From: an uncultured Gammaproteobacteria bacterium
GTDB lineage: Bacteria; Pseudomonadota; Gammaproteobacteria; GCF-002020875
Direction: 5' to 3'
DNA: 64,000 bases
Assembly: GCA_963981015.1 (NCBI GenBank)
Contig: CAXCCG010000003.1
Coordinates: 578 to 64,577, forward strand
Part shown: in pieces, positions 3,343-58,524 of the stretch
Layout of the letters: every line of letters begins with the position of its first letter
How positions within the stretch are numbered: position 1 is the stretch's first letter
Program-made: the position numbers and the translations under genes
The notes under the pieces: generated by a model
What the model was told of the DNA's origin: nothing
The model's input: only the letters and a program-made list of their open reading frames with translations
Databases searched by the model: none

Positions 3343-4899
3343 ATGAAAATTACCCGCGCACTGATCAGTGTCTCTGATAAAACCGGAATTGTCCCTTTCG
3401 CTGAGCAACTGGCACAACAGGGTGTTGAGATTCTCTCTACCGGAGGCACGGCCAAACTTCTTGCTGAAAGTGGCGTGGCCGTCACCGAGGTCTCTGACTA
3501 TACCGGCTTTCCTGAGATGATGGATGGGCGGGTCAAGACGTTACACCCCAAGGTCCATGGTGGACTGCTCGGTCGTCGCGGTGTCGATGATGCGGTGATG
3601 GAAGAACATGCGATTCCACCGATTGATCTGGTGGTTGTTAATCTCTACCCCTTTGAGGCGACTATCGCCCGTCCAGACTGTGATCTGCCGATGGCGATTG
3701 AGAATATTGATATTGGTGGCCCCACCATGTTGCGTGCTGCTGCGAAAAATCACCTGGCTGTAACCGTTGTAGTCGACAGTGCTGACTATGAACTGATCTT
3801 GAATGAGATGAGGGAAAATGGGGGTGGCGTGAGCGATGATATCCGTTTCCACCTTGCGGTGAAGACCTTTGAACACACTGCCGGCTATGATGGGGCAATT
3901 GCCAACTACCTCGGCTTCTTTAATAAAGATGGTGCCAAATCAGAGTTCCCTCACACTTATAACAGCCAATACATCAAGGCGCAGGAGATGCGCTACGGTG
4001 AGAATCCTCACCAGAAGGCTGCCTTCTACGTGGAGGCCAATGCTGCAGAGGGTTCCATTGCCACCGCCAAACAGGTTCAGGGCAAAGAGCTCTCCTACAA
4101 CAATATCGGAGATACCGATGCTGCTCTGGAGTGTGTAAAGCAGTTTGATGAGAGCCCCGCCTGTGTCATCGTCAAACATGCCAACCCCTGTGGAGTTGCG
4201 TATGGTGAGAGCCTGCTGGAGTCCTATGACCGCGCCTATGCCACTGACCCTGAGTCTGCTTTTGGTGGCATCATCGCCTTCAACCAGCCTCTTGACGGAG
4301 AGACAGCACGCGCCATTATAGATCGCCAATTTGTCGAGGTGATCATCGCACCAGCGATATCCGATGAGGCGGTCGCAATCATCAGTGAGAAAAAGAATAT
4401 ACGACTTCTGGTCTCTGGCTCTTGGGCTGAGAACCAAACACGCATCGACCTGAAGCGCGTCAATGGTGGACTGCTGGTACAGGATGCTGACCTGCTACTC
4501 ACCAACGAGATTCAAGTTGTCACCAAGCGTGAACCCACACCACAGGAGATGGATGACCTGCTGTTTAGCTGGAAAGTGGCCAAATTTGTGAAATCCAATG
4601 CCATTGTCTATGGCAAGAGTAATATGACCATCGGTGTAGGAGCGGGCCAGATGAGCCGTATCAATTCGGCCCGTATCGCTGGCATCAAGGCCGAACATGC
4701 CGGTCTGGAGGTTCCTGGGTCGGTGATGGCCTCTGATGCCTTCTTCCCGTTTCGTGACGGCATTGATGCCGCACAGGAGGCGGGTATCGTTGCGGTAATT
4801 CAGCCCGGTGGCTCAATGCGTGATGATGAGGTGATTGCTGCTGCAGATGAGCATGGAATGGCCATGGTGTTTACCGGGATGCGTCACTTCAGACACTAA
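3343..4899 (+). CDS. purH: bifunctional AICAR transformylase / IMP cyclohydrolase
   Basis: [17 protein letters not shown]... MGS-like and AICARFT domains, 518 aa. Confidence 0.95.
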
Positions 4900-5077
4900 T
4901 CACCTGAATTCAAACGCTCTTATTCAGTCAGTTTTGCTGTACTGAAGAGAGCTAGTTATAAAGTGTTGCATAAATTCATGCTCTCTACCCCAGCCCTCCC
5001 CCTGCAGAGGGAAGGGTTTGGTGTATGAAGAAACTTATGCAGCTATTGATAAAGAGTCACTTAGAGAGTTAATAGAG

Positions 5078-7014: not shown

Positions 7015-7440
7015 TCAGTACTGCAAGTGCGCTCTTCCACAATCTTTACAGGCCAAACGGAGAACAACTACCACGGTTACGACCCCTAATAAAACCAATA
7101 CTGTTGTTCCCATACCCCCCCCTGTGCTTATCATATGCTTACTGATCAACTACCATAACTCAGTGATTGCTGTGCTTGTATACATAACCACCACTGCGTG
7201 CCATTACACGCATAAAACGGCGTGTCACCCCTGCCTTCCACCCTATTTCACACTCATGCGAGAAACCACCTATCGCCTCATCTGCTTTTTTTCTCGCAGC
7301 TGTATTCTGCTCACAACTAACTTCCCGATCAAATCTTGGAAATGGTGCCATAACAAACCTCCTATTCTCGGACAGTTACCTAGTTATAGCCCAACCAAAT
7401 AATTACTCAATACGTATATATGCGTATTTTATAATCAAGA

Positions 7441-7625
7441 GCATTACCCGTAGAGTGATATTGGCTGCACGATGTGGTGGAGAGAAGTTTGCAATTATTC
7501 TTCCAAATACCATTAGTAGTAAAGCACTAACGGTTATTGATCAAGGGCTTTATGCGGAAAAAGAGAGGGCTGGAAACCACTCATCTATCTATCCACAGAG
7601 AGGTATCGGGCTAAGGAACCCCTGA
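7441..7625 (+). pseudogene. remnant of a GGDEF (diguanylate cyclase) domain C-terminus
   Basis: frame translates to ...ARCGGEKFAIILPNTISSKALTVIDQGLYAEKERAGN*, matching the RxGGEEFxxxLP...LYxAKxxGRN end of GGDEF domains; no upstream start. Confidence 0.5.
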
Positions 7626-9881: not shown

Positions 9882-9980
9882 GTTCTACTCCAAACCAGTA
9901 CTCTGGCAAGCTAGGATTAACGATAGTCAGAGAAGCCCATGAGCTTGTCCGAAAAAAGAGAGCCCACTGCGGGAAAGCTC

Positions 9981-31668: not shown

Positions 31669-31939
31669 TTTGAACCATTACAGTATTGTGCTGAATAGTT
31701 GCTCTACAACTTACCCTGCTGCCTGCTCAATCAATTCATATGTCATCTGATAGCATTCGCGGCACAGTTCTTTGAATAGGTCATAATCACTATTCACTGC
31801 GTTGCAGTGCGGTACGCACGATATACTGGATAGCGCCCCTTTGTCATCCGGACAACTCTATGACAGATACGGACATTTTAATATTAATATGTCCGTTCTG
31901 TTGGCTGCATTCCCACAACTAGGGCTGCCCGAGGATCTA

Positions 31940-32899
31940 TCAAAAGTGCTGATAACCCCGGCTGGCAGGACTCCAGTCACCACTCCATTTCAACTGGTTT
32001 CCCTTCTCGACCTCCCCCACTACCGTGATGGGCACCGCAATCTCTTCCAGCTCTCGGCAGAGTAGTGGGTACGCCTCTTGAGGCAGGGTAAAACAGAGCT
32101 GATATTCATCTCCGGCAACCAAAGCAAAGTTCAATTGCTGCTCTACACTCAGTTCAGCCAGTGCCGGATGGAAGGGAATAGACTCTAGGTCAAGTTTCGC
32201 ACCCACTCCGCTTCGCTGCAGTATGTGCTCTAAATCTGCCAACAAACCATCCGAAACATCAACCATCGCTGAGGCATAACCCCGCAGTCGCAACCCTGCT
32301 TCGACACAAGGCATAGGACGCTCTAGGTGGTGACGAATGTTCGCTGCTTCTTGACCTTGCTGCAATTGCTGTAGAGCATAGCCTGCAGCCCCTAGCCGGT
32401 TGGTTACACAGATCAGATCTCCAGCTTGTGCACCATCACGACGGATGGCTTTTCCGACAGGCACAACGCCATGCGCCTGCAGTGTCAGCGTTAACGGGCC
32501 ACGAGTGGTATCTCCACCCACCAGGTCAATCTGATAGTGTGATGCCAGTGCAAACAGCCCCTCTGCAAACTGCTGTAGCCATATTGAATCATTTTCTGGC
32601 AGTGTCAGTGCCAATGTTACCCATCTAGGCTCGGCCCCCATTGCCGCAAGATCGCTCAGATTCACTGCCAATAATTTATGGCCCAGGGCCTTCGGATCTA
32701 CATCCTTGAGAAAATGAACCCCTTCAACCATCGTGTCGACAGAGACCACCAACTGTTCTCCTGGCAGCAGCTGCAGCAGTGCTGCATCATCTCCAATCCC
32801 CAACAGGGTCTCTGCGTGGTAGTGCTCCCTTTTCGAGAAGTAATCCTGAATCAGCGAGAATTCAGTTACGGCTTTTGCTCTGCTTTTTCTGCTTCTCAT
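31940..32899 (-). CDS. thiL: thiamine-monophosphate kinase
   Basis: EFSLIQDYF...LLGIGDDAAL...VVSVDTMVEGVHF AIR-synthase-like ThiL; internal Met start chosen (the upstream extension overlaps nusB). Confidence 0.8.
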   Translation of the reverse strand: MRSRKSRAKAVTEFSLIQDYFSKREHYHAETLLGIGDDAALLQLLPGEQLVVSVDTMVEGVHFLKDVDPKALGHKLLAVNLSDLAAMGAEPRWVTLALTLPENDSIWLQQFAEGLFALASHYQIDLVGGDTTRGPLTLTLQAHGVVPVGKAIRRDGAQAGDLICVTNRLGAAGYALQQLQQGQEAANIRHHLERPMPCVEAGLRLRGYASAMVDVSDGLLADLEHILQRSGVGAKLDLESIPFHPALAELSVEQQLNFALVAGDEYQLCFTLPQEAYPLLCRELEEIAVPITVVGEVEKGNQLKWSGDWSPASRGYQHF

Positions 32900-35044: not shown

Positions 35045-35704
35045 CTATTTCATAAATCCATTTTCTGCCAGAAAATCAATACTGATCCCCTCAGCACCCG
35101 GTTCGGCTGCACGATCACCGAGCACCATTCGCTCCAGATAACGTGCAATCAAATCAACCTCAAGGTTTACTTGAGTACCCACCCTGAATTGATCCATGGT
35201 GGTCTCTTGCAGTGTATGAGGCACAATATTCAAATCAAACAATGCACCGTTCACACCATTCACTGTTAAACTAATTCCATTGACTGTTATTGAACCCTTT
35301 TCAGCAATATAGCGCGCCAGCTCATCCGGCGCCTTGATCTGAAAAAAGATCGAGCGTCCATCCTCTGAACGTTGCTGCACTTCACCAACCCCATCCACAT
35401 GACCACTCACCAGATGGCCTCCCAGTCGCGTGGTTGGCGTTAACGCCTTTTCCAGATTGACGAGTGCCCCTACGGTTAATTGAGCGAAAGCAGTACGTGA
35501 GAGCGTCTCACCAGAGACGTCGGCCACAAAGCTGTTTCCAGGCAGTTCAACCGCGGTTAAACAGACCCCATTCACCGCAATGCTATCACCCAACTGCACG
35601 TCTCTCAGATCCAGCTTGCCGGTCTCAACCGTAAAACGTGCATCAGCCCCTTTGGGTTCGATACGCGCAATTTTACCGATAGATTCAATGATGCCTGTAA
35701 ACAT
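35045..35704 (-). CDS. ribE: riboflavin synthase alpha subunit
   Basis: MFTGIIESIGKI... two lumazine-binding repeats; internal Met start chosen. Confidence 0.85.
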   Translation of the reverse strand: MFTGIIESIGKIARIEPKGADARFTVETGKLDLRDVQLGDSIAVNGVCLTAVELPGNSFVADVSGETLSRTAFAQLTVGALVNLEKALTPTTRLGGHLVSGHVDGVGEVQQRSEDGRSIFFQIKAPDELARYIAEKGSITVNGISLTVNGVNGALFDLNIVPHTLQETTMDQFRVGTQVNLEVDLIARYLERMVLGDRAAEPGAEGISIDFLAENGFMK

Positions 35705-35773
35705 GGGGGGAGGATAGTACCATAGAGTGACTGATTTCAAGACCTCACACTGACCTATTCCATAGCAAATCGT

Positions 35774-35937
35774 CTAGGTGGCTGCCCGAGAATAGAAGTC
35801 GTAGCGAGGGGAAGCTGATTTGAGGCAGATTTTGTCATCATTTGAGGCGAATAGTTCTATTTAACGAAAAGGATGGGAAAATATGGCCAAATTCAGCTTT
35901 TCCGCAGCAGGCTCTCTATTCTTGGACAACCGCCTGG
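35774..35937. mobile_element. MITE-like ~150-bp element with ~24-bp terminal inverted repeats (copy A)
   Basis: AGGTGGCTGCCCGAGAATAGAAG at the left end and its reverse complement at the right (...CTCTCTATTCTTGGACAACCGCCT, 8/10 match in the outer part); ~90% identical to copy at 58349-58524. Confidence 0.6.
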
Positions 35938-35963: not shown

Positions 35964-37739
35964 CTAAAACATCTCCAGGCTACCGGCCCCCACCTTGCCC
36001 TGAGTGATCAGCAACTGCTCAAACTCGTTTGCTGGAACAGGTTTCGAAAAGTAGAAGCCCTGTAACTCCTCACACTGATGTTCACGTAAAAAATCTGCCT
36101 GAACCTTCGTCTCCACCCCCTCTGCAACCACATCAAACCCCATACTGTGGGCCATCGCAATCACGGCCTTTACCAAGGTCATATCATCTTTTGACGAAGG
36201 GATCTCTTTGATAAATTGCTGATCAATTTTGATGATATCGACCGGAAGGCGCTGAAGATAATTTAGGGTTGAATAGCCTGTACCAAAATCATCTACTGCA
36301 ATCTGTATCCCCGCTGAACGGATTTTCTGCAGAGATCTTGCTGCCTGATCCAGGTTATCAATCGTTGTTGTCTCGGTAATCTCCAGCTTAAACCAGGGAG
36401 GGGAGATACCACTTTTTCGAATCACATCAATAAACCACTCTGCCAGAGTCTCCTCTTGCAGCTGAATTGCCGAGAAATTAACCGCAATTCGTACACCAGG
36501 AAAGCCTTTTCTAAGCCACTCCAGATGCTGTTCGATGGCCTGCTGCATGACCCACTCTCCGACCATACGAATCAACCCGTTCTGCTCCAATAACGGGATA
36601 AAACGGTCTGGCGGTATCGCTCCCAAAGTAGGATGGTGCCAGCGAAGTAGTACTTCACAGCCCACAATCTGTTTATTGATACTGTCTACCTGAGACTGAT
36701 AGTAGAGTTCAAATTCATTATTCTGCAGTGCTGTGTAGATCGAGCTATTGAGTTCTAGGTCAAACTGGACCTGATCTTTCATCTCCAGCTCAAAGAAAGA
36801 GTAACTGTTATCACCTTGCTGACGCGCATACTCCAAAGCCGTTCCTGCACAACGCAACATCGATTCTGCACTGTCACAGTGGCGGGGGAAAAGTGAAATA
36901 CCTACATTCAGCCCCAGAATCACCTCATCACCACTCAGTTCATAGGGTGCCTTAACCGCGTCAATCACACCAGCAACCACCTGCTCAACAAACTCTATAT
37001 CATCATACTCATCACAAAGAACAGCAAAATGGTCCCCACCAACCCGGGCAATCAGGCGCTCTTTTGCAACAGAATGTTGAAGACGGGCCGTAACCTCTTT
37101 GAGAATAAAGTCACCCAAAAGATGACCATAGACATCATTAATGCGCTTGAAATTGGCCACATCCATAATCAGCAACGCCATCTGCTGACCTCTTAATGAG
37201 GCCTCTTTGACCATCTGAGCAAGATAGACCAGAAAAAACTGTCGATTGGGCAGGTCCGTTAAAATATCATAATTGGTGATCTCATAGAGCTCTCTCTGAG
37301 TCTTCTTATGGTCTGAAATTGCCCACTCCAGCTGCTGGATATTATTCTGCAATGAGCCATTGAGCGCCTGGATACGCAACTGCGCATTAATTTTTGCCTG
37401 TAGCAGAGAGGGGTTAAAGGGTCTGGAAATAAAGTCATCACCACCGGCATCCAGAGCTTGGGTAATCACCTTCTCATCATCCTCTGCCGAGATAAAGATA
37501 ATGGGCACATAGGATTCACCCTGACTGGATTTGATCTGCCTCGCAGCCTCATACCCATCCATCAACGGCATATGGATATCCATCAGCACAAGGTCTGGTC
37601 CTACTTTCTGAAATAGCTGAACCGCCTCAAGGCCATTTTTTGCCTCAATCAATTCATAGCTCTCCTCTCCCAGAACGGCCTTAAGCTGTGCCCTGTTGAT
37701 GCCGATATCTTCAACAACTAAAACTTTAATAACTTTCAT
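35964..37739 (-). CDS. response regulator with REC-GGDEF-EAL architecture (GGDEF motif degenerate: GGDHF)
   Basis: REC (VLVVEDIGINR...DLVLMDIHMP), GGDEF region with RVGGDHFAVL, EAL domain with EVLLRWHHP and conserved catalytic residues. Confidence 0.85.
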   Translation of the reverse strand: MKVIKVLVVEDIGINRAQLKAVLGEESYELIEAKNGLEAVQLFQKVGPDLVLMDIHMPLMDGYEAARQIKSSQGESYVPIIFISAEDDEKVITQALDAGGDDFISRPFNPSLLQAKINAQLRIQALNGSLQNNIQQLEWAISDHKKTQRELYEITNYDILTDLPNRQFFLVYLAQMVKEASLRGQQMALLIMDVANFKRINDVYGHLLGDFILKEVTARLQHSVAKERLIARVGGDHFAVLCDEYDDIEFVEQVVAGVIDAVKAPYELSGDEVILGLNVGISLFPRHCDSAESMLRCAGTALEYARQQGDNSYSFFELEMKDQVQFDLELNSSIYTALQNNEFELYYQSQVDSINKQIVGCEVLLRWHHPTLGAIPPDRFIPLLEQNGLIRMVGEWVMQQAIEQHLEWLRKGFPGVRIAVNFSAIQLQEETLAEWFIDVIRKSGISPPWFKLEITETTTIDNLDQAARSLQKIRSAGIQIAVDDFGTGYSTLNYLQRLPVDIIKIDQQFIKEIPSSKDDMTLVKAVIAMAHSMGFDVVAEGVETKVQADFLREHQCEELQGFYFSKPVPANEFEQLLITQGKVGAGSLEMF

Positions 37740-58281: not shown

Positions 58282-58328
58282 TGCACCATTTATGTGCGGT
58301 ATTTTTTCAAAACGCACCGTTTTGGTGC
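58282..58328. promoter_or_regulatory. two NtrC-type palindromes (TGCACCATTTATGTGC and GCACCGTTTTGGTGC) upstream of glnA
   Basis: match TGCACC-N5-GGTGCA enhancer consensus, ~200-250 bp upstream of glnA start on its coding strand. Confidence 0.45.
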
Positions 58329-58348: not shown

Positions 58349-58524
58349 CTAGATGGTTATCCGAGAATAGAAGTCGTAGCGAGGGGAAGCTGATTTGAGA
58401 CAGATTTTGTCATCATTTGAGGCGAATAGTTCCACTATTTAACGAAAAGGATGAGGAAATATGGACAAATTCAGCTTTTCCGCAGTAGGCTCTCTATTCT
58501 CGGACAGCCACCTAGGTGGCTGCC
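58349..58524. mobile_element. MITE-like ~150-bp element with ~24-bp terminal inverted repeats (copy B)
   Basis: CCGAGAATAGAAG ... CTCTCTATTCTCGGACAGCCACCTAGGTGGCTG; right end extends into an 18-bp perfect palindrome CAGCCACCTAGGTGGCTG. Confidence 0.6.

Follow-up and report, generated by a model that had tools for sequence, protein, structure and literature searches.

Two intergenic repeats in a gammaproteobacterial contig and the CTAG-associated family of miniature inverted-repeat elements to which they belong

Two intergenic repeats of ~160 bp, here called copy A and copy B, occur in a 64,000-nt stretch of contig CAXCCG010000003.1 from an uncultured gammaproteobacterium (assembly GCA_963981015.1; "the window" denotes this whole stretch). 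Both very probably represent fossils of a ~161-bp DNA transposon of the non-autonomous, cut-and-paste kind, that is, a miniature inverted-repeat transposable element (MITE). Their family seems to be an undescribed one of an ordinary element kind. In agreement with the initial annotation, which had read the repeat as a non-autonomous miniature element, the family comprises well over 100 dispersed copies with a length peak at 161 bp, CTA/TAG flanks and deletion derivatives. The same annotation had considered that a segmental duplication would leave just two copies embedded in longer homologous sequence; many copies exist elsewhere, and the flanks of copies A and B cannot be aligned.

Copies A and B share 93.8% identity over 146 aligned bases, a match that the repeat finder splits into two blocks (94% and 90%) and that forms the longest direct repeats in the window. 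The pair lies essentially where it had been placed before, with genuine inverted termini and unrelated flanks, and the earlier figures of ~150 bp and ~90% identity are refined to ~160 bp and the value given above. The likeness between the copies ends at terminal inverted repeats of 20-21 bp (GGTGGCTGYCCGAGAATAGA). The window form of the terminus, GGTGGCTG(C/T)CCGAGAATAGA, differs from the consensus by 0-3 mismatches; in each copy one terminus is well kept and the other decayed. A terminus-derived 17-mer (≤3 mismatches) matches the window six times against 0.29 expected, a number reached in 0/100 shuffles, and a profile built from 64 family members recovers both copies (see table). As stated in the initial annotation, there is no transposase inside: the ORF lists contain no ORF of any size within copy A or copy B, and the ATG that opens a short frame in copy A is not kept across the 161-bp family.

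Scans of sequence collections place the family far beyond the window. An exact scan with a 20-mer of the terminus, covering one genome per species, found it in 29 reference-genome stretches from several taxa, and the same scan of metagenome contigs returned at least 119 stretches. More than half of the reference stretches (17/29) belong to the uncultured Gammaproteobacteria metagenome-assembled genome (MAG) SI037_bin54; the remainder come from Methylococcales MAGs, Methyloprofundus, Nitrosomonas, "Deltaproteobacteria bacterium TL4" (GCA_051382335.1; hereafter TL4) and single matches in other MAGs. The plasmid collection contains one full-length relative with 78% identity, in an unannotated spacer of the Pseudomonas sp. 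MPC6 plasmid pMPC6-328K. Candidate copies in viral contigs were dismissed as chance, the 17-mer giving one match in a coding region and a 14-mer giving 120 matches without extended similarity. The terminus strings retrieved nothing relevant from the searchable literature.

Lengths of elements with paired termini show a sharp mode at 161 bp (n = 35), with 49 elements falling within 160-163 bp. A second family measures 179 bp, and further ones measure 141-143 bp (in TL4) and 183-185 bp; all have the ends in common (~33 bp each) and carry unrelated cores. The 142-bp TL4 copies that were compared are 99% identical to each other, which leads one to expect a partner element in that genome. Deletion derivatives of 29-65 bp retain just the two termini and their TA flanks. 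Contig ends often fall within copies, and every such end corresponds to the interior of a MITE. In metagenome assemblies of marine and sediment Gammaproteobacteria, the family accounts for numerous contig breaks and intergenic palindromes that lack annotation, and it offers a clean means of tracking insertion polymorphism there.

The termini are nearly invariant in an alignment (A2) of 64 distinct copies of the 161-bp family. Their third base covaries between the two ends (alignment columns 3 and 172), giving GGAGG…CCTCC in 49 copies, GGTGG…CCACC in eight and mixed forms in a few. Copies from the window and from SI037_bin54 belong to the GGTGG form. Judged from the aligned sequences, this suggests that two terminus variants exist, possibly matched to two transposase variants.

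Flank statistics for 104 non-redundant paired elements reveal a clear insertion signature. The three positions before the element are C, T and A in 94, 94 and 92 cases, and the three positions after it are T, A and G in 97, 88 and 96. TA stands on both sides in 70/104, no direct repeat lies further out, and the outer flanks look random. A complete CTAG on either side of the element (CTAG/.../CTAG) fits 60/104. With a G as the first base of the element and a C as its last, duplication of TA and duplication of a 4-bp CTAG predict the same sequence; TA on both sides is what a target-site duplication would leave, and its 2-bp and 4-bp forms would look alike. Eight elements have TTAG or CTAA on one side only, opposite a CTAG, and matched non-CTAG YTAR pairs occur in 0/104. 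The one-sided cases lean toward TA duplication; all of them are transitions, and decay could also have produced them. Finally, one element copy nested within a member of a ~165-bp palindromic repeat family offers an empty site that is compatible but off by one base, and not decisive.

Some insertions coincide with the ends of genes. In about one-fifth of the elements (21/104, ~20%), the junction TAG doubles as the stop codon of an ORF with 80 or more codons; for comparison, 74 of the 2108 strand-wise CTAG sites in the same loci close such an ORF. An example is purH of SI037_bin54, a relative of the source organism; this purH is 77% identical to the window purH at the nucleotide level and carries a copy exactly on its stop codon (…CAC/TA/GGTGG…CCACC/TA/GACC…; L024:3000-3190). 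The window purH ends in CAC TAA and has no copy (window 4880-4905). This contrast, seen in the sequences of the two genes, points to independent insertions within the lineage.

These features are consistent with the following course of events. A transposase supplied from elsewhere would bind both ends and excise the element, which would insert at the TA of a CTAG with duplication of the TA, a signature of IS630/Tc1-mariner-type DDE enzymes. Each insertion would rebuild CTAG at both junctions, given the G...C ends of the element. As the junctions restore C-TA-G, an overlapped TAG stop codon would stay intact after insertion, which illustrates how a CTAG-targeting element can land on stop codons without damage to the gene. 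The rebuilt CTAG sites next to the element would also serve as new targets, which accounts for the back-to-back arrangement in locus L006 and at window positions 58513-58524. At the latter site, copy B is joined, by way of a shared TA, to a 10-nt stub of a further left terminus, left over from a copy that was adjacent or earlier.

We further noted that the family forms a conserved hairpin, with a structure derived from alignment A2 using RNAalifold. The termini, GG(A/T)GGCTGTCCGAGAATAGA, are followed by ~12 conserved bases that differ between the ends (End1, ...AGYCGTAGCGA; End2, ...GARCCTACTGCG). Additional motifs are kept on one strand, namely CGTAGCGA on the left, TTTCCGCAGTAGG on the right and TGAGGCGAATAG-N3-5-CTATTTAACGA at the apex, and the GTAG-containing motifs remain on the same strand at both sides and are not inverted. 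The stems between the motifs vary, and SI037-type stems are wholly different yet still pair. Standard pairs fill 95.3% of cells versus 86.4% in column shuffles (0/500 shuffles reach the observed value) and at most 51% in slid controls. Both-sided changes affect 22/43 pairs; the apical pair is G-C in 41 copies, C-G in 16 and U-A in four. Variants found in at least three copies mostly preserve pairing (28 Watson-Crick, 14 G-U, 3 A-C, 10 other), and private variants are mostly disruptive (10 Watson-Crick, 10 G-U, 7 A-C, 44 other).

The hairpin is also asymmetric between the strands. When folded as RNA, the End1-to-End2 strand is the more stable one in 63/64 copies (mean -82.8 vs -66.3 kcal/mol; copy A, -67.5 vs -47.5 kcal/mol), and G-U cells number 348 against 26 A-C cells. 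The asymmetry persists when the core is folded by itself (64/64); a subfamily whose stem sequences are unrelated shows it too, as do 9/10 copies of the unrelated 179-bp core. For the TL4 family, the end motifs give no orientation, and its two folded copies yield opposite results. Copies are related by descent, such that the hairpin counts represent approximately three independent lineages, and the orientation of the elements relative to neighbouring genes has no clear (significant) bias. Quasi-palindrome correction by template switching could mimic compensation without selection. We regard the strand-biased fold as suggestive and unexplained, and we read the hairpin as mattering for the propagation of master copies and not for the host. 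If confirmed as events on a tree, the covariation and asymmetry would raise the question of whether some bacterial MITEs are selected as RNA or single-stranded DNA. A stronger version, in which the 161-bp and 179-bp families need a strand-specific single-stranded hairpin to propagate or be retained and are not passive deletion derivatives, appears unlikely to us. The required hairpin could be the End1-to-End2 RNA or single-stranded DNA recognised by the mobilising enzyme; if true, the elements would represent MITEs with an obligatory structured module, or a mobilisation system undescribed for elements with terminal inverted repeats.

A full-length insertion sequence (IS) with the same termini, for which the initial annotation had proposed a search, was not found. 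No autonomous element with these termini is present in the ~160 fetched loci, the plasmid collection or the reference-genome matches. Inward ORF scans from solo termini, the contig-end matches inspected (MITE interiors throughout) and a search with a 55-nt TL4 subterminal sequence gave no partner, and the plasmid collection yielded one further MITE copy and no partner. Pairing of termini at any distance returned no pair more than 400 bp apart, and clustering of ORFs of at least 150 aa across the fetched loci revealed neither a recurring transposase nor a recurring linked gene. The first 200 kb of pMPC6-328K, with three IS630 genes and one IS5 gene, contain no matching ends. IS630 targets CTAG and duplicates TA; consistently, the IS630 copies of this plasmid sit in C/TA/G and end in TA/GTGTCCTGAG(CGG/TTA)..., having just a TGTCC.GAG core in common with the MITE terminus.

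Several of these observations weigh against the cut-and-paste interpretation of copies A and B, namely the missing autonomous partner and the limited resemblance of the plasmid IS630 ends. To them we add that no true empty site was recovered: the metagenome contigs searched do not contain the sequence predicted for the copy B site before insertion, and the closest other EAL orthologues (57-65%, with SoxYZ neighbours) are without synteny at the copy A locus. The assignment to an IS630-type enzyme falls short of proof since both duplications give the same flanks, and DDE cut-and-paste alone leaves the hairpin covariation and strand preference unexplained.

The enzyme class is the point at which the closest rival departs from our interpretation. 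The same kind of MITE might be moved by an IS5-family transposase that duplicates a 4-bp CTAG (YTAR), with the element proper starting at GAGGCTGT...; we consider this a serious, if tentative, candidate and favour an IS630-type enzyme over it. The complete CTAG flanks seen in 60/104 elements fit such an enzyme, and MITEPsy1, a reported probable derivative of the IS5-family element ISPsy2, inserts at CTAG/YTAA with a 4-nt duplication and has GGAAGG termini (PMC3189936). After its first G, GAGGCTGT matches 7/8 bases of the ISPsy19 end GAGGGTGT (PMC3189936), which also terminates the IS5-type copy of pMPC6-328K, yet this resemblance spans just 8 bases (GAGG(C/G)TGT in common) and no IS5-type partner was found among the loci and collections searched. 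The flanks themselves speak against it in that a YTAR enzyme is expected to leave matched TTAG/TTAG or CTAA/CTAA pairs, and only the eight one-sided cases occur, although all of these could be post-insertion transitions. Far further from our interpretation is the idea that the repeats are host regulatory DNA or RNA (a ribE promoter, or a terminator or stabiliser) or a local segmental duplication, which we hold to be extremely improbable. Both copies are intergenic, copy A lies 69 nt 5' of the riboflavin synthase gene ribE, and RNA transcribed from either strand would fold into a long hairpin. Against this stand the unrelated flanks of A and B, the well over 100 copies in unrelated contexts and taxa, the failure of scans to detect a promoter- or terminator-like site inside either copy, the fact that flanking genes read through the weaker-folding strand, and the mostly stem-breaking private mutations, as expected for unconstrained copies.

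A further alternative takes the hairpin as the functional unit, acting either as single-stranded DNA for an HUH/Y1 enzyme (as in IS200/IS605 or REP/REPIN-RAYT systems) or as a structured RNA, with the termini as the base of the stem. It would account for the excess of standard pairs and the 22 pairs changed on both sides, for the stability and G-U bias of the End1-to-End2 strand, for the pair-preserving nature of shared variants compared with private ones, for the recurrence of the asymmetry on unrelated stems and cores, and for the GTAG-containing motifs kept on one strand. The force of these patterns is reduced by kinship among the copies, by the unorientable TL4 family with its opposite folds, by the missing gene-orientation bias and by the possible origin of "compensatory" changes in template switching. 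Copies A and B contain no internal promoter-like site, and Rfam 15 gave no match at the gathering threshold in the whole window; a permissive Rfam search of copy B returned just two chance-level matches (E = 4-9). The ends also speak against it: perfect 20-bp termini on unrelated cores, symmetric CTA/TAG flanks and termini-only derivatives are typical of DDE-mobilised MITEs, whereas IS200/IS605 and REP elements lack terminal inverted repeats. We judge the hairpin alternative distinctly improbable and retain the interpretation as a MITE.

Among known systems, the architecture of the Correia elements (CREE/NEMIS) of Neisseria comes closest. These are non-coding, ~100-160 bp long, with ~26-bp terminal inverted repeats and insertion at and duplication of TA; they occur in hundreds of full-length and internally deleted copies that give rise to long-hairpin transcripts, and no cognate transposase is known. 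The 161-bp family resembles them in its size (~150 bp), probable TA duplication, predicted hairpin transcripts and lack of a known transposase. This comparison is one of architecture; the Correia terminus is not known to be related. Unlike the Correia elements, which are confined to Neisseria, the 161-bp family spans several orders, prefers CTAG targets and displays covariation and strand asymmetry in its core. Documented promoter, IHF-site and RNase III functions also set the Correia elements apart. Enterobacterial ERIC/IRU elements are ~127-bp intergenic imperfect palindromes that are co-transcribed, their hairpin RNA having an orientation-dependent effect; they have neither a clear target duplication nor sharply defined perfect termini. 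They have the long intergenic hairpin in common with the 161-bp family and no evident sequence similarity. REP/REPIN and IS200/IS605-derived palindromes (20-40-nt hairpins with a 5' GTAG, linked to a Y1 transposase gene and devoid of terminal inverted repeats and target duplication) differ from the family, which has perfect 20-bp inverted termini, symmetric CTA/TAG flanks and two GTAG motifs that share a strand and are not inverted.

Two further systems have CTAG targets in common with the 161-bp family and come closest to it in target choice. MITEPsy1 of P. syringae is 100 nt long and enters CTAG or YTAA sites, both between genes and elsewhere, with a proven 4-nt duplication; it has demonstrated mobility and a probable parent, ISPsy2, and carries 18-nt termini, GGAAGGTCTGAAAAAGCC, beginning with GGAAGG (PMC3189936). 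It is similarly small and CTAG-targeting, and it differs in its termini, in its size (100 nt vs 161 bp) and in having a known probable parent. Elements of the IS630/Tc1-mariner group (IS630, ISY100) duplicate TA, and terminal inverted repeats of ~24 bp are sufficient for them in cis (PMC2170065). IS630 itself agrees with the 161-bp family in the choice of CTAG, but the elements of this group are autonomous elements of 0.9-1.2 kb that encode a DDE transposase, whereas the family is non-coding. By sequence, the 161-bp family is not a member of the IS630 or MITEPsy1 groups as represented by the ends compared, nor is it known to be one of the Correia elements.

The genomic context of copy A agrees with the initial annotation, which had placed it between ribE and a c-di-GMP gene: Pfam identifies a riboflavin synthase with two Lum_binding domains, followed downstream by ribBA, and a REC-GGDEF-EAL protein. 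Both genes are on the minus strand, and copy A lies 30 nt 3' of the REC-GGDEF-EAL stop and at the above distance from the ribE ATG. The suggestion that copy A contributes promoter sequence to ribE found no support. A promoter and terminator scan detected no sigma-70-like promoter or terminator inside copy A, and the sole promoter-like site upstream of ribE lies between copy A and the gene; nothing in these predictions supports copy A as the ribE promoter. Copy B has the nadE stop on one side and the upstream region of glnA on the other. The End1 motif is on the left in copy A, and the better-folding strand is therefore the window plus strand; the same is true of copy B. The four genes next to the copies all lie on the minus strand, so that mRNA reading through a copy would carry the weaker hairpin and no U-tract. 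The copies would act as neutral intergenic passengers whose transcripts carry a long hairpin, and they are probably neutral for ribE and glnA. The upstream regions of both genes each hold a ~160-bp passenger, which is relevant to the prediction of promoters, enhancers and riboswitches there.

Both window copies appear to be old, because each has one decayed terminus, copy A has lost one TA (its right flank, TGG at 35935-35937, is a decayed TAG) and the copies are identical in independent contigs. The decayed termini and the lost TA suggest that neither copy is still mobile, and both are probably immobile now. In L162, an independent metagenome contig, the compared spacer with copy A shows no difference, and copy B is unchanged in three others (L038-L040). 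The window GlnA was found identical in 264 blocks of public assemblies. Retrieved contigs with an identical GlnA carry copy B, and those with a near-identical EAL protein carry copy A, both unchanged; the two copies thus appear fixed in the contigs sampled.

The window holds additional traces of the family, which are listed below together with the neighbouring features. The truncated remnant represents ~38-43 nt from the right-hand part of the element (88% over 34 nt, E = 1.3e-4; nhmmer E = 3e-4). The probable solo terminus, which is too short for profile scoring, lies where an ankyrin-repeat gene and tatC are separated by 600 bp, and the possible solo terminus is, taken alone, compatible with chance.

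Table. Family copies, remnants and associated features in the window, and copies of a ~165-bp palindromic repeat family in other loci
Feature	Position	Strand	Details
Copy A, complete element	35777-35934	+	158 bp; profile E = 1e-45
Copy A, left terminal inverted repeat	35777-35796	+	GGTGGCTGCCCGAGAATAGA; flank CTA at 35774-35776
Copy A, right terminal inverted repeat	35915-35934	-	reverse complement GGCGGTTGTCCAAGAATAGA; 3 mismatches to consensus
Copy B, complete element	58352-58512	+	161 bp; profile E = 4e-46; orientation as copy A
Copy B, left terminal inverted repeat	58352-58371	+	GATGGTTATCCGAGAATAGA; 3 mismatches; TA at 58350-58351, C before TA
Copy B, right terminal inverted repeat	58493-58512	-	reverse complement GGTGGCTGTCCGAGAATAGA; perfect consensus; TA at 58513-58514, then G
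Stub of further left terminus	58515-58524	+	10 nt; GGTGGCTGCC; 13-nt exact match at 58512-58524
Truncated remnant	9943-9980	-	profile positions 121-158
Probable solo terminus	7361-7383	-	GGTAACTGTCCGAGAATAGG; 17/20 matches; canonical TAG flank at 7381-7383
Possible solo terminus	31920-31941	+	CTAGG--GCTGCCCGAGGATCTA; 2-nt gap and 3 mismatches
Degenerate GGDEF-domain gene fragment	7386-7625	+	…RCGGEKFAIILPNT…LYAEKERAGNH…
ribE	35045-35707	-	riboflavin synthase
Promoter-like site upstream of ribE	35740-35711	-	
REC-GGDEF-EAL gene	35964-37739	-	
glnA start	58077	-	
NtrC-type palindromes upstream of glnA	58282-58298, 58314-58328		TGCACC-N5-GGTGCA-like
nadE stop	58573	-	
~165-bp palindromic family copies	L014:2990-3340, L110:4909-5094, L100:2330-2490, L013:1344-1436, L047:518-612, L022:1788-1883		

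Some of these neighbouring features are of interest in themselves. The degenerate GGDEF-domain gene fragment adjoins the probable solo terminus in the ankyrin-tatC spacer; it is probably a pseudogene remnant, and its truncation is possibly linked to the neighbouring MITE end. Upstream of glnA are two NtrC-type palindromes, and copy B begins 23 bp past the distal one, leaving both uninterrupted. The nearest relatives of the window REC-GGDEF-EAL protein (57-65% identity; L163-L166) adjoin soxYZ and not ribE, a hint that sulfur oxidisers make up the wider lineage; the ~20 kb around these soxYZ-linked EAL genes contain no MITE copy.

A candidate parent that we rejected comes from TL4. In locus L018 (contig JBBCAX010000174.1), a transposase ORF matching NCBIfam NF033572 (ISKra4-like, E = 4.5e-38) has its end 149 nt from a terminus of the MITE type, 36 nt of which are identical to the local 142-bp MITE. 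Homologues of this transposase define a 1.46-kb IS with ends of its own, GGGTGTAAATCACGACTGTTGG; L018 has this IS end 72 bp inside the MITE terminus, and the MITE terminus is found in none of the homologous loci. The L018 transposase is thus part of a separate IS beside a 36-nt MITE remnant, and the contig starts inside this insertion sequence. The ISKra4-like family itself (~1.46-1.5 kb; L018:104-1627 and L032-L037) has ends GGGTGTAAATCACGACTGTTGG or GGGTATAAATCAAGATCGTTGG and includes more than 1000 homologous transposases (E up to 1e-10), of which many lie on contigs no longer than 1.2-2 kb. A poly-T run in the TL4 copy marks an apparent frameshift.

Other small repeats were encountered in the same material. 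The ~165-bp palindromic repeat family (TTAGGAGCGAGGATTCAATAATATCCGAA…; see table) occurs in Methylococcales-type contigs. In locus L064 (3983-4311), a copy of the 161-bp type is split at its apex by a different element of ~170 bp with ends AAAAATCAGTTGG / CCAACTGATCTTT. This element has CTAG on both sides and therefore represents another CTAG-targeting miniature element in these communities.

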